Shown here one piece after another: positions 26,885 to 37,604 of a stretch of 64,000 bases of DNA. Under the pieces are notes generated by a model. That model worked only from the letters and a program-made list of their open reading frames with translations, made no database searches and was not told the origin of the DNA. Positions within the stretch are counted from its first letter, which is position 1; the number at the start of each line of letters is the position of its first letter. This DNA is from Pseudomonadota bacterium (lineage in GTDB: Bacteria; Pseudomonadota; Alphaproteobacteria; 16-39-46): NCBI GenBank assembly GCA_018242545.1, contig JAFEBT010000001.1, positions 23,180 to 87,179 of the forward strand, read 5' to 3'. Made by a program: the position numbers and the translations under genes.

Positions 26885-26926
26885 ATTGCCTTTGGATTAA
26901 AAAAACCAAAGGCAATTTTATTTTTT
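26885..26926 (+). terminator. Rho-independent terminator after hupB
   Basis: Perfect 11-bp stem ATTGCCTTTGG / CCAAAGGCAAT with an A-rich loop, followed by TTTATTTTTT. It overlaps the stop codon of the convergent virB11-like gene. Confidence 0.7.
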
Positions 26927-27848
26927 AAACCCCGACCGTGCTTTCTTCTCGTTCCCAAATACTTTGAATTCTTTTCTTATCCGCGTCCCTAGATTCGATT
27001 TGAATGACAAGATCAATTGTTTTTTTCAAAAAATCAAAAACGTTTTCCGCCTTATACCCTGAAAGGTTCAAGTTTTGTTCAAAGGCTGAGGCAAGTGCAA
27101 GCTTAGGAGAATTTGCATGAATTGTACACATAAATCCTTTATGTCCTGTATTTAAAAGTCTCAATATCGGAAAGCTATTCCGAATAGAAACTTCGCCTGT
27201 TAAAATAATATCGGGACGTGATCGCATAAAATGATCTATAACTGCCTGATATGTAAGGCATCCATTTTCCTCTCCACGCGGAACAAGATAAGATTTCCAA
27301 TTTTTATGCGGCAAATTTAACTCACGTGTATCTTCCACTGTTAAAATCCGTTTAGAGAGAGGGATCTCTTGGGCTAACAAATTTAAAAATGTTGTTTTTC
27401 CTGAACTTGTTCCTCCTGAAATCAAAATTGATTTTTGACATCGCACAGAATTACATACCTTTTCTATAAGAGAATCTGTCATTCCAAAATCTTTAAATGT
27501 TTTATTTTGTGTGCGGTGAAGCCGAATTGAAATCGAAATTCCGTCTTTGACAAACGGTCCTAACATCGCTTCAAATCGATGAAAATTCTTTGTTTCTGGA
27601 TCTTGAAAGGACGTTGAAAGAATAGGGTGCGTCTCAAGATCAAAAATAAGACCGCTCATATTTGCAAGAACATGGCATACCATTTTCCAATAGGCATAGT
27701 TTAGTTCTTGAACTTCAACAAAAGTATACCCCTTCCCTTCAATCTCAAGTCCTACCTCTTTTTCACGAAGAATTGAGAGCTCCTTAAGATTTTTTATCTT
27801 TAAAAAAGGACGCAGAGGCTCAAGAAGCGTTTTTAAAAGACTTGTCAT
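26925..27848 (-). CDS. virB11: Type IV secretion ATPase, VirB11/TrbB family
   Basis: Walker A ILISGGTSSGKTTFLN, RILTVEDTRELNL, and the His-box GHKGFMCTIHANS typical of VirB11-family traffic ATPases. Last gene of the T4SS operon. Confidence 0.8.
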   Translation of the reverse strand: MTSLLKTLLEPLRPFLKIKNLKELSILREKEVGLEIEGKGYTFVEVQELNYAYWKMVCHVLANMSGLIFDLETHPILSTSFQDPETKNFHRFEAMLGPFVKDGISISIRLHRTQNKTFKDFGMTDSLIEKVCNSVRCQKSILISGGTSSGKTTFLNLLAQEIPLSKRILTVEDTRELNLPHKNWKSYLVPRGEENGCLTYQAVIDHFMRSRPDIILTGEVSIRNSFPILRLLNTGHKGFMCTIHANSPKLALASAFEQNLNLSGYKAENVFDFLKKTIDLVIQIESRDADKKRIQSIWEREESTVGV

Positions 27849-27877
27849 TTTCTAAAATTCTTTAAAAAAAAGGGATT

Positions 27878-30034
27878 TTAACATATTTGCGTTCGAATAT
27901 TTTGAACAGGAGACATCTTCTCCCAAGAGCTAAAACTGACGTCCCCAGATGGAAGCTCTGTTCTAAGTCTCTTTTCAAGAAATGATGAATGATAGAGAAA
28001 AAACGGAAGGCCTGAACTTCCCCAAGGCGCTTTCTGCCGAGCCTCTCCACATCCAAGCCATTCCCCATCGAAACTTCCACTTGGCCAGTGAATGTCTTCT
28101 GTTGGTCTGTTTCCAGATTTCATATACCAAGAAGAAGATTTATGCTCATGCATCTCTTCATAAACTTTACAAAGATTTTTACTTTTTTCAGGAAGGGCTT
28201 TCCCAATAATTTCCTTGAAGAAAGTTCCATCTGGTCTTCGATATATTTGAACCTCATGTTGCGGAACAATTTTAAAACATCCTTCATAAAAGGCATTTTC
28301 CTCATCTGCTAAGACCTGTATATCTTCTGGAGTGTAAGCAATAGACGGTAAAGAAGCCTCCTGTTCTTTTGAGTTCTTGATGACAACACTACCGGCATAA
28401 GGAACATCAATATATATTTCTATCTGAGGCTGTGAAGATTTCGTCTCGTCATTATGAACATATCCGATAAGTCGCGTGTGATGTAAAAACACATGCTCTG
28501 AGGGTTCACAATCTGTGACAAAAATTCTTTGATCTCCGCTCTTATAAAAAAAACGAGAATATCCCTTTGATTGACCCGTTTCAAAATTATGATCAAATTT
28601 TTGGGAACAGCCTTCTGTTGTCTCTTCCAATTCTTGAGAAGGTCGACAACGTGTCAAAAATAAAGGTCCTTCTCGAGATTCAATCATAACACGAACTTGG
28701 ACAAACCTTTTTCCTGATTGAGGATCAACAATAGGGGGACATCCCAGAGTTGAACCCTGATGTGGAAGAGCTTCACCATCATCACGACAGGGTGTTATTC
28801 TTCTTTCATGACCTTTTATAAAGGTAACAATACGCGTTTGAGGAATCGATTTTTTCTCTTCAAAATTATGATGATATCCGCAAAAAATCTTTTCGAGACG
28901 CAGCTCTTCTTTTTTTGAATGAGGACGGCATTCTTCTATAACAATGCGTCTTTTTCGGTAATCTTTATAAATAAGGGTTGCCATTTGATGCGCTGTCATT
29001 TTCTTTAGATCGACGTCAAGGTCACATGCGTCCTCTTCTTCTAAAATCTCAAAAGTGATGTCTTCATCGGGTTTGCAAATCTCATCCACGCGATGTACTT
29101 CGCCTTTATCGTCTACCCAATAATGCTTATACTGGGGATGAACCCGTCCTTCCTCTTTTAATATATAATCTGGGCATTCTTCATAATGCTTTTTAAGTGG
29201 ATATCGCTCATTTGAATCAGAACAAGGCTCCTCCTTATATATTTTTCCATTTTTTCGAATAATAGATCGCGTTTGAATGATTGCACTTTCCTGCTTTTTA
29301 TCAATACGGACAGAGCATCCTTCCTTTAAAATATCGATCTCAAGGTTTTCGGGAATAAATCCAAGGGAATTTTCAGAAAAAGACCCTTTAACTTTTTTTT
29401 GTTTCTTTTTCTTTTTTTGAAAAGGCTGCAAAGAGAAGCCTTCTTGTCCAAGATATCTCTTTTCTTCAGAATTATAATTTCCTTTCGTAAAACTTTTCTC
29501 CACGCTTGAAATTTTTTCAGAAAACATACCTTTCTTTTTATCTTCTAAGGAAGGAGATTTATGGGAAAGAAGCCAATCTTTTTTGTAGATCTCTTGTATT
29601 TTTAGAAAAAAAGTATGCAAATCTCCTTTAACCTCAAGTTCTGTCCCTCTTGGAATAAAAGAACTTTTAACTTCAGAATACAATTTCTCTACTTGCATGC
29701 TTCTTGAAAAACTTTGCTCTCTTTTTACAAGTGCCTCCTTCCACACAATTAAAAACTTTTCTTTTCGAGATGAGTTCGATTTTTGTCTTCCTTTTTTATA
29801 AATACCTTTTAATATTCCTTTATAGCTTTGAGATTCATTTCGCCCTTTTATTCTAAAATGTACGGTTATTTTTCCACCTCGAGATGAAAGCGTTTGATTT
29901 TCAAAAGAATAAGCTTTGATCATTGGGAAATGAGCCTCTGTTTTCATCCCTGCACAATAAAAAAGCGCAATTACACTAAAAAAGAAAATCTTTTTTTCCC
30001 CTTTTTTCTTCCAAGACATACTTCTTAAAGTCAT
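27878..30034 (-). CDS. Large secreted Cys/Lys-rich protein of unknown family embedded in the T4SS operon (between virB10 and virB11)
   Basis: 718-aa ORF with an N-terminal signal peptide (KKIFFFSVIALFYCAGM). About 16-17 cysteines are spread over the length. There are poly-Lys tracts (QKKKKKQKKVK). No TM segments. Its start overlaps the virB10/trbI stop, suggesting translational coupling. No recognisable family motif. Confidence 0.6.
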   Translation of the reverse strand: MTLRSMSWKKKGEKKIFFFSVIALFYCAGMKTEAHFPMIKAYSFENQTLSSRGGKITVHFRIKGRNESQSYKGILKGIYKKGRQKSNSSRKEKFLIVWKEALVKREQSFSRSMQVEKLYSEVKSSFIPRGTELEVKGDLHTFFLKIQEIYKKDWLLSHKSPSLEDKKKGMFSEKISSVEKSFTKGNYNSEEKRYLGQEGFSLQPFQKKKKKQKKVKGSFSENSLGFIPENLEIDILKEGCSVRIDKKQESAIIQTRSIIRKNGKIYKEEPCSDSNERYPLKKHYEECPDYILKEEGRVHPQYKHYWVDDKGEVHRVDEICKPDEDITFEILEEEDACDLDVDLKKMTAHQMATLIYKDYRKRRIVIEECRPHSKKEELRLEKIFCGYHHNFEEKKSIPQTRIVTFIKGHERRITPCRDDGEALPHQGSTLGCPPIVDPQSGKRFVQVRVMIESREGPLFLTRCRPSQELEETTEGCSQKFDHNFETGQSKGYSRFFYKSGDQRIFVTDCEPSEHVFLHHTRLIGYVHNDETKSSQPQIEIYIDVPYAGSVVIKNSKEQEASLPSIAYTPEDIQVLADEENAFYEGCFKIVPQHEVQIYRRPDGTFFKEIIGKALPEKSKNLCKVYEEMHEHKSSSWYMKSGNRPTEDIHWPSGSFDGEWLGCGEARQKAPWGSSGLPFFLYHSSFLEKRLRTELPSGDVSFSSWEKMSPVQNIRTQIC

Positions 30035-37239: not shown

Positions 37240-37241
37240 GC

Positions 37242-37532
37242 TTAATTCCCTGTCAAAAATCCGATAACATATTCAAAACTTGCAAGAAGAATGGAAGCTA
37301 TTACGAAAGAGATGCCCCATCTAAAATTAAATTTTCCAAAAACGGCTTGAAGAATAAGAAGGGCGCCAGCAAGGCCACATCCAACTGAACCTATTTTTAA
37401 AATTCCTTTGGTTGTATGACTTACCTTTTCTGCAACCACCGAAAATGGGTCCGCGCTAACATGATGAAAAAACAAGCAAAAAATTCCTAAAGCCAAAAGA
37501 TCCCAAAAAAAATTCCCTTTAAAAATCTTCAT
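37242..37532 (-). CDS. virB2: T4SS pilin VirB2/TrbC (likely start at the internal Met MKIFKGNFF...)
   Basis: Signal peptide MKIFKGNFFWDLLALGIFCLFFHHVSA, then two hydrophobic helices separated by a short loop (GILKIGSVGCGLAGALLILQAV...ISFVIASILLAS). This is the classic T-pilin organisation. First gene of the operon. The ORF-track upstream ATG (37589) would place the predicted -10 inside the CDS. Confidence 0.6.
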   Translation of the reverse strand: MKIFKGNFFWDLLALGIFCLFFHHVSADPFSVVAEKVSHTTKGILKIGSVGCGLAGALLILQAVFGKFNFRWGISFVIASILLASFEYVIGFLTGN

Positions 37533-37575
37533 AATAAATTCCTTCATATCCTTGCAAAATGATTGTTTATAAAAT

Positions 37576-37604
37576 TTTATATTTTGCACGCTTCACAAAA
37601 TCAA
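37576..37604 (-). promoter_or_regulatory. Candidate sigma70-type promoter for the T4SS operon
   Basis: On the minus strand: TTGATT -17 nt- TATAAA, then ~45 nt, GAAGGA RBS and the ATG of the pilin gene. Confidence 0.4.

Follow-up and report, generated by a model that had tools for sequence, protein, structure and literature searches.

A chromosomal VirB-type secretion operon without its own coupling protein, probably derived from a conjugation plasmid

A complete type IV secretion system (T4SS) operon was identified on the minus strand, from 37589 to 26925, of a 64-kb stretch of alphaproteobacterial DNA, which is called the window here and was analysed over its whole length. The operon consists of eleven co-directional, tightly packed open reading frames (ORFs) in the order virB2 to virB11, with an extra gene coding for 718 amino acids between virB10 and virB11. 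It probably goes back to a plasmid-borne conjugation machine of the mating-pair formation type MPF_T that became domesticated in the chromosome, is still functional and has no type IV coupling protein (T4CP) of its own. The plasmid lineage of this T4SS was already known; neither the chromosomal clade nor the extra gene was found described in the literature.

The virB operon and the missing coupling protein

The sequence-only reading of this DNA had proposed eleven packed genes in virB order, and this was borne out by the ORFs, by hidden Markov models (HMMs) and by the orthologues in related loci, which are designated by L numbers. The intergenic gaps within the operon range from -43 to +29 nt. 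Its genes are:

37242..37589, minus strand: VirB2/TrbC-type pilin; the ORF starts with GTG at 37589, the likely true start is ATG at 37547 or 37532
36943..37239, minus strand: VirB3-like small inner-membrane protein, 98 amino acids, directly upstream of virB4
34577..36931, minus strand: VirB4 ATPase, 784 amino acids (PF03135, 1e-11, above cut-off; TIGR00929 VirB4_CagE, 3e-100)
33843..34619, minus strand: VirB5-family pilus-associated protein, 258 amino acids, assigned by transitive profile homology
32902..33843, minus strand: VirB6/TrbL polytopic inner-membrane protein, 313 amino acids (PF04610, 1.9e-6, above cut-off)
32703..32879, minus strand: VirB7-position lipoprotein, about 52 to 58 amino acids, with the lipobox ..FTAGC
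31944..32684, minus strand: VirB8, 246 amino acids (PF04335, 1.5e-24)
31099..31947, minus strand: VirB9, 282 amino acids (PF03524, 6e-23; TIGR02781 P-type VirB9, 6e-18)
30031..31095, minus strand: VirB10, 354 amino acids (PF03743, 3.9e-37; NF038091 VirB10, 8e-31; NF038092 ComB10, 2.5e-39)
27878..30034, minus strand: secreted cysteine-rich repeat protein, 718 amino acids, a lineage-specific "12th component" without Pfam match
26925..27848, minus strand: VirB11 ATPase, 307 amino acids (PF00437, 3.6e-26; TIGR02788, 1.6e-47)

The 5′ end of the operon, which had been placed at 37604, was corrected to the GTG at 37589 or, more likely, to one of the two ATG codons of virB2. VirB4, VirB6, VirB8, VirB9, VirB10 and VirB11 score above their own Pfam gathering cut-offs and so pass the HMM check of the components, whereas the VirB2, VirB3, VirB5 and VirB7 proteins of the window have no direct match in Pfam or NCBIfam. 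All NCBIfam matches have significant E-values and lie under the curated cut-offs, for which reason the operon is regarded as divergent.

For the four components without a direct match, the orthologues and the protein features were considered. The VirB2 protein has a signal peptide ending in ..HHVSA, followed by DPF and two hydrophobic helices, and shares 83–86% identity with the proteins of L010 and L013 at a ratio of nonsynonymous to synonymous substitutions (dN/dS) of 0.04–0.06. At this position PF04956 (TrbC) is matched by four of six orthologues (best 9.5e-6), and at the VirB3 position PF05101 (VirB3) is matched by two of five (2e-4). The VirB3-like protein contains two hydrophobic segments (dN/dS 0.15–0.20). 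The VirB5-position protein carries a signal peptide and is predicted to be all-helical (dN/dS 0.14–0.18). Its profile, A3, aligns with the B5 protein of an Erythrobacter plasmid (hhalign 97.7%, E 2e-12, 223 columns), and the latter passes PF07996 with 30.3 bits against a cut-off of 24.7. A single-sequence AlphaFold2 model of this protein was unusable, with a predicted local distance difference test score (pLDDT) of only 38, and a comparison of its profile with the PDB sequences returned nothing but spurious formin matches. In the VirB7-position lipoprotein the lipobox and the motif SxCPCG..FYxNG are kept in all orthologues (dN/dS 0.16–0.19).

The Walker motifs of both ATPases are intact. VirB4, which is identical to the protein JSS34_00290 of the metagenome-assembled genome (MAG) at NCBI, has both its Walker A (GSGKTT) and Walker B (IFIDEA) motifs, and VirB11 has the Walker A motif GTSSGKTT and shares 79% identity with L013 (dN/dS 0.10). 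VirB6 is 79–80% identical to its orthologues in L010, L013 and L007. VirB10 is short with its 354 amino acids, and its N-terminal hydrophobic segment ends in LEGC. This N-terminus is closer to a signal peptide or lipobox than to the usual cytoplasmic tail with a transmembrane helix.

The operon is a complete VirB-type T4SS of the class MPF_T (P-type), colinear with virB2 to virB11. The former label "VirB/Trb-type" can be narrowed to VirB, since the VirB models of NCBIfam outscore those of Trb, as for VirB11 with TIGR02788 against TrbB_P (7.7e-35), and the gene order is not that of a trb operon. In the latter, trbB-C-D-E-J-(K)-L-F-G-H-I, the VirB11 homologue comes first; here this ATPase is the last one. 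A scan for promoters and terminators gave no informative signal in the AT-rich DNA of the window.

That the window holds no T4CP, no relaxase and no lytic transglycosylase was confirmed. Neither a T4CP nor a relaxase family was found with Pfam among all ORFs of at least 278 amino acids. Using the T4CPs of the relatives as tblastn queries, no match and no remnant was detected in the window, at E<0.1 for the TrwB type and at E<0.01 for the VirD4 type. The operon lacks a lytic transglycosylase gene (SLT, VirB1), and tblastn with the SLT of the lineage gave no match and no remnant in the window either; five ORFs of 130 to 268 amino acids (983–1375, 9886–10287, 11148–11858, 60728–61237 and 62223–63029) lie outside the Pfam scan. 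Two ORFs were rejected as T4CP candidates. The 718-amino-acid extra gene is not a misplaced T4CP, as its product has a signal peptide, is cysteine-rich, and shows no P-loop and no Pfam match; an ORF of 567 amino acids downstream of virB11 has no family match and no tblastn match to T4CPs. Near the locus no integrase, relaxase or att-like repeats were found, and the direct-repeat matches are AT-rich chance only.

T4SS paralogues are likewise missing within the 64 kb. Among the proteins with the tag JSS34 of the source MAG, one VirB4 and one extra protein were found, and no T4CP with this tag is among the best 120 of 337 T4CP-profile matches. This is weak evidence against a T4CP elsewhere in this MAG, because MAGs often miss plasmids, the names cover part of the database, and T4CPs of unrelated lineages would be ranked low. 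Plasmid-type second copies of the T4SS occur in two related MAGs.

The chromosomal clade and its plasmid relatives

The window is part of the core chromosome. It contains ffh (3′ end)-rpsP-rimM-trmD-rplS, fabI, lepB-(rnc)-era-recO, greA, rlmN and the transfer-messenger RNA (tmRNA) gene. The operon itself lies between two conserved genes:

37767..38423, plus strand: MoCF_biosynth-domain gene (PF00994, 6e-18), divergent from virB2, conserved upstream boundary
26598..26864, plus strand: HU-type DNA-binding protein (PF00216, 1.9e-31), convergent with virB11, conserved downstream boundary

At least four further genomes or metagenomes, represented by L010, L013, L015 and L001, have the operon at this site, with 60–88% protein identity. 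In L013 the order is MoCF-domain gene, virB2 to virB11 and HU gene, and in L015 and L001 virB11 is followed by the HU gene. The MoCF-domain gene holds its position in L010 and L013, and the HU protein, 95–98% identical, in L001, L013 and L015. L010, from the MAG "Alphaproteobacteria bacterium 16-39-46", also has the window's upstream neighbours, a TolC-like outer-membrane efflux protein, a rhodanese, PCMT and the MoCF-domain gene, with 71–79% identity, while its T4SS proteins share 59–83%.

Purifying selection can be seen in all 11 operon genes, with dN/dS values from 0.04 to 0.23 against 0.11 to 0.30 in flanking housekeeping genes and with pN far below pS; these ratios are approximate because dS is near saturation (about 1–1.8). 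Full-length ORFs, synteny and purifying selection together argue for a domesticated machine rather than a decaying remnant.

For the placement by phylogeny, trees of VirB4 and VirB11 had been suggested; the placement obtained here has another basis, a neighbour-joining tree of VirB8, VirB9 and VirB10 (669 columns, 60 bootstrap replicates). The chromosomal type, comprising the window, L010, L013, L015, L001 and L007, forms one clade in 100% of the replicates, and so does a plasmid type with L003, L008, L009 and L011. Both types are sisters and are nested among T4CP-bearing plasmids. The chromosomal type has no T4CP, no SLT and no gene of the kind that the plasmid type carries between virB6 and virB7. 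By sequence, the operon is a member of a subfamily of MPF_T that is found on conjugative plasmids. The earlier view of an effector-translocating rather than conjugative system stands insofar as a plain conjugative module is ruled out by the location of the locus, a position in the core chromosome that different species have in common. The operon does not form an independent effector-type lineage; the clade is nested among conjugation plasmids.

The eleven-gene order including the extra gene was also found on three plasmids of Candidatus Paracaedimonas (Caedibacter) acanthamoebae (CP008937/38/40), whose VirB4 is 37%, VirB11 48% and extra protein 29% identical to that of the window. Both organisms are low-GC alphaproteobacteria. 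The two differ in that the Paracaedimonas operons are plasmid-borne and accompanied by an SLT-like gene, a downstream TrwB-type T4CP (PF10412, 1e-126; 2.6 kb after virB11) and a MOBQ typing, whereas the operon of the window is chromosomal and without these. The Paracaedimonas operons have previously been described as P-like vir operons, and this related plasmid system was set apart from rvh (Wang and Wu 2017, PMC5751055).

L003 is a plasmid-like metagenomic contig that encodes ParA, ParB and a DnaA_N-domain protein and has, after virB11, first an SLT gene and then a T4CP gene; in L004, L005, L006 and L008 the T4CP gene comes after virB11. More distant relatives are the MPF_T plasmid T4SSs of free-living proteobacteria, such as that of pMSR-1. 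pMSR-1 of Magnetospirillum gryphiswaldense, typed as MPF_T, has the order virB10, extra gene, virB11, T4CP and single-stranded DNA-binding protein (SSB). The architecture of VirB2 to VirB10, extra protein and VirB11 is common to these plasmids and the window, and the extra proteins share 24–30% identity (E 1e-33 to 1e-46). They are much more divergent, however, with about 27% identity in VirB4, and carry T4CP and SSB genes directly after virB11, which the window operon lacks. Searching with the extra protein by tblastn yielded further plasmids from Magnetospira, Thalassospira, Roseibium, Microbulbifer, Azospirillum, Desulfovibrio and Nitrosospira. The Erythrobacter plasmid, which is similarly distant in VirB4, has virB2 to virB11, a T4CP and a MobA/MobL relaxase and is without the extra gene.

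As the plasmid relatives have the T4CP gene after virB11, this can be taken as the ancestral state, and the absence of the T4CP in the window would be a secondary loss because the operon is nested in a T4CP-bearing plasmid lineage. The pattern of the clade fits one old integration, a loss of the parts for DNA transfer and a vertical inheritance of the working apparatus. An ancestor of this low-GC uncultured alphaproteobacterial group would have taken up the T4SS module of a plasmid between the MoCF-domain and HU genes. The integrated module would then have lost the T4CP, the VirB1-like transglycosylase and the small gene between virB6 and virB7, and the whole envelope-spanning apparatus would since have been retained under purifying selection. 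As close plasmid sisters keep the T4CP, the two types offer a natural before-and-after comparison of the domestication of a conjugation machine.

The small gene between virB6 and virB7 encodes a protein of about 189 amino acids with a signal peptide and was seen in plasmid-type copies only (L003, 13371–13940; L008, about 300–1000). The protein has no Pfam match; that it is an entry-exclusion gene would be speculation. In L008 (NCGZ01000080.1), the plasmid-type copy of MAG 16-39-46, the T4CP ORF ends after about 245 codons (regions 7495–8230 and 1–300 of the contig). Since the same-looking terminus of an insertion sequence (IS) occurs at both ends of this contig, an IS has probably disrupted the T4CP gene, unless the break is one of the assembly. 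L006 (JGI Ga0558119_08188, 9980–14152) has an intact T4CP and many short ORFs in place of VirB9, VirB10 and the extra gene; this copy is apparently decaying and adjoins a phage-type integrase.

The cysteine-rich extra protein and the possible role of the machine

The extra gene, which had been noted before, proved to be real and conserved, and it is not peculiar to this locus. It holds the same position in L001 to L006, L013, L015 and pMSR-1 and is a constant part of the plasmid subfamily as a whole. The plasmids on which the context-checked members lie in MPF_T operons come from Alpha-, Beta-, Gamma- and Deltaproteobacteria. An exhaustive profile search gave 465 representative clusters at 50% identity, 228 of them at E<=1e-30. 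The gene thus defines a sizeable uncharacterised family, whose context-checked members are found at a fixed position in MPF_T operons, and it points to a subunit that has so far gone unrecognised in VirB systems which are otherwise "minimal".

The protein has a signal peptide (dN/dS 0.16–0.18), a variable, lysine-rich N-terminal part of about 230 amino acids with 20–41% identity to its relatives and a conserved part of about 490 residues (230–718) with 45–75% identity. In an alignment of eight sequences, 15 cysteines are invariant. The cysteine spacing (31/16/33/17/32/16/31/16/31/13/33) indicates six tandem two-cysteine units of about 48 residues each between residues 240 and 509, and some pairs of these units are significantly similar to each other. 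Some family members are 1,100 to 2,100 amino acids long and have up to 14 matched stretches, so the number of repeats varies. Pfam has no model for this protein or for eight diverse family members, and in the PDB neither a sequence nor a fold match was found. AlphaFold2 with eight sequences predicted an all-beta structure with a pLDDT of about 80 for residues 380–718 and a predicted template-modelling score (pTM) of only 0.30.

The Sec signal and the conserved cysteine pairs imply a periplasmic or surface location, and the fixed position in the operon implies that the protein is a subunit or an obligate accessory of the machine. From its sequence, it may be associated with the outer membrane or exposed at the surface, where it would have a structural or adhesive role.

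What the machine does and which substrates it has we infer from its gene content and its relatives. The apparatus would comprise a pilus, with the pilin VirB2 and the tip or adhesin-type protein VirB5, an inner-membrane platform of VirB3, VirB4, VirB6 and VirB8, an outer-membrane core of VirB7, VirB9 and VirB10, the ATPase VirB11 and the secreted cysteine-rich repeat protein, an additional subunit that is constant in this T4SS subfamily. It may now act without a coupling protein of its own in an interaction with other cells or with a host. One option is that it displays a pilus or a surface structure, in which case the disulfide-stapled repeat protein would likely be an accessory at the surface or outer membrane. 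Another option would be a T4CP-independent export of substrates, as in Brucella VirB or Bordetella Ptl.

Few T4SSs without T4CP are known (Ptl, Brucella VirB, Trw and ComB), and the window operon would be a further one of independent derivation. According to PMC12857230 (section 20), the Trw system of Bartonella is derived from R388, lies in the chromosome, has lost its T4CP and has amplified genes for pilin and VirB5, for which variable adhesive pili have been proposed. Like the window operon, Trw is a plasmid machine that was taken into a chromosome, lost its T4CP and kept the VirB2 to VirB11 homologues. Its pilin and VirB5 genes are tandemly amplified and variable, whereas every gene of the window operon is present in single copy. 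The two are not directly related, because the Trw lineage has no extra gene. For Brucella VirB the same section of PMC12857230 describes an export of effectors, some of them via the periplasm, without VirD4; this system shares with the window the chromosomal location, the lack of VirD4 and the retained VirB5 and VirB11, and it has VirB1 and VirB12 in addition. Bordetella Ptl is given there as a chromosomal two-step toxin exporter without VirB5 and VirD4, and ComB of H. pylori as a DNA uptake system without VirB5 and VirB11. The cysteine-rich subunit of the window is missing from both Brucella VirB and Ptl. On this comparison, the inventory with VirB2 to VirB11 in single copy fits Brucella VirB best in content and Trw best in history, while Ptl and ComB are poor fits; set against PMC12857230 (section 20), the gene inventory is nearer to Brucella VirB or Bartonella Trw than to Ptl.

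The placement beside the rickettsial-type rvh system, which had been considered, could not be upheld. Like the window operon, rvh is an alphaproteobacterial P-type T4SS of host-associated bacteria. Its genes are spread across several loci; VirB6 is represented by several paralogues, and VirB4, VirB8 and VirB9 are duplicated. It lacks VirB5 and has kept VirD4. In contrast, the window has a single colinear operon of single-copy genes with VirB5 and no VirD4, and this operon is nested in the plasmid lineage.

It can be suggested, tentatively and with somewhat less than even expectation, that this clade, which is probably associated with protists, has independently repeated the story of Bartonella Trw: a conjugation machine would have been captured, stripped and repurposed as an organelle for host interaction, and the repeat protein would be a new structural or adhesive subunit of a whole MPF_T subfamily, with a fold not represented in the PDB.

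Several observations weigh against a domesticated machine that works without a coupling protein. Besides the near saturation of dS, the absence of a T4CP holds for the 64-kb window, so that one could lie in the remaining part (about 37 kb) of the source contig or elsewhere in the MAG. The T4CP-profile search covered the best 120 of its 337 matches, used a word prefilter and had names for some of the proteins only. That the extra protein may act at the surface or as an adhesin is drawn from the signal peptide, the cysteine repeats and the variability of both the N-terminus and, among relatives, the number of repeats. Finally, both related GTDB MAGs with a chromosomal type also hold plasmid-type copies, and therefore the coupling protein could come in trans. 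A profile scan of the genome contigs with alignment A1 gave five loci, none of them from the source MAG: MAG 16-39-46 has one of the chromosomal type (L010) and one of the plasmid type (L008), in which the N-terminus of a T4CP adjoins an IS, and MAG ZH-15may19-125 has one of the chromosomal type (L007) and two of the plasmid type (L009 and L011).

These co-resident copies lead to a reading in which the operon is still a channel for conjugation or mobilisation and obtains its T4CP and relaxase from a plasmid-type copy or another chromosomal site. The use of a non-cognate T4CP is conceivable, as R388 TrwB works with Bartonella VirB (PMC12857230, section 20). However, the plasmid-type copies bring a complete channel of their own, so that a second one is not needed, and both the SLT and the gene located between virB6 and virB7 are gone from the chromosomal clade. 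Moreover, the locus has kept a single chromosomal position in the different species, neither an integrase or relaxase nor att-like repeats lie close to it, and no JSS34-named T4CP (best 120 of 337), second VirB4 or second extra protein appeared, which makes this reading rather unlikely. Even less is to be expected of a two-step exporter of the Ptl kind for Sec-exported periplasmic proteins, an analogy drawn earlier which is one option and not specifically supported. It agrees with the lack of a T4CP in the window and with a periplasmic intermediate for Ptl and some Brucella substrates (PMC12857230, section 20), and the neighbouring protein of 567 amino acids (23988–25691, minus strand), with an N-terminal hydrophobic signal and 1.2 kb beyond the HU gene, could be its cargo. 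But VirB5, absent from Ptl, is retained here, and the label "MTase-ankyrin" for this proposed cargo could not be maintained, as its SAM-methyltransferase motif and its ankyrin-like repeats at the C-terminus are weak and sub-threshold (Methyltransf_31, E 0.052; Ank_4, E 0.2). Its gene lies in a segment of about 8 kb alongside NB-ARC/TPR genes. In L001 and L015 other genes come after the HU gene and this one is absent, which means that operon and proposed cargo are not inherited together.

DNA uptake in competence, as by ComB, or a release of DNA is highly improbable. The window contains neither T4CP nor relaxase, and the best NCBIfam match of VirB10 is ComB10 (2.5e-39 versus 8e-31 for VirB10); this match, however, reflects the shared C-terminal barrel domain and reaches 135 bits against a cut-off of 300. 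VirB11 and VirB5, which ComB lacks (PMC12857230, section 20), both occur in this operon and are conserved. In the window neither a comEC nor a comH partner was seen, and the plasmid relatives already suggest a placement away from ComB. There is just as little to expect from a non-functional, decaying remnant of an integrated plasmid, although T4CP, SLT, relaxase and the genes for replication and partition are missing, probable plasmid genes are scattered at 15–18 kb and the relative L006 has a fragmented operon. All eleven ORFs are full length, the ATPase motifs are intact, the dN/dS values resemble those of the housekeeping neighbours, and the operon is syntenic in at least four other genomes.

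Neighbouring genes and probable traces of the former element

Apart from the operon, a further set of genes with counterparts on the plasmid-like contig was identified:

15093..18093: three-gene module with a gene for 187 amino acids (minus strand), a Cro/C1 helix-turn-helix (HTH) gene for 150 amino acids (plus strand) and a gene for a membrane/coiled-coil protein of 531 amino acids (minus strand)

These genes match L003 (5833–8163) by tblastn with 28–43% identity in the same local order and orientation, and in L003 the homologues adjoin virB2 directly upstream. A homologue of the 531-amino-acid protein with 60% identity is located directly after the HU gene in L001. The Cro/C1 protein matches HTH_26/HTH_3, while no family match was found for the other two proteins; the impression from the sequence that the T4SS-linked 531-amino-acid protein is a histidine kinase was unsupported by family searches. 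The module is probably a remnant of the ancestral plasmid and may be regulatory. Between it and the HU gene lies the segment of about 8 kb with the signal-peptide protein of 567 amino acids and two NB-ARC/TPR genes. The plasmid-derived region may therefore reach from about 15.1 to 37.6 kb.

Three genes of the STAND type (signal transduction ATPases with numerous domains) were seen in the window, at 19561–22992 (minus strand), 18449–19372 (minus strand) and 46844–50317 (plus strand). Two of them encode LuxR(GerE)-NB-ARC-TPR proteins of about 1,150 amino acids, and one is a fragment of 307 amino acids with NB-ARC only. The copies at 18.4 kb and 21.3 kb have a 117-nt repeat with 73% identity in common, and two of the three genes lie within the segment inserted between the HU gene and the plasmid-derived module. 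A protein of 448 amino acids (45488–46834, plus strand) combines an HTTM domain (vitamin-K-dependent carboxylase-like) with a DCC1-like thiol-disulfide oxidoreductase domain, in the part of the window with the lowest GC content (0.28). The GC content is 0.28–0.31 in the stretches 14000–24000 and 44000–50000 against 0.34–0.41 elsewhere. As these stretches coincide with the STAND genes and ORFs of unknown function, they suggest acquired DNA.

The only direct taxonomic marker in the window is a two-piece (permuted) alphaproteobacterial tmRNA at 53881–54271 (minus strand), with the tag peptide ADNDNAFGVEAMNDNAPAVAAAA.

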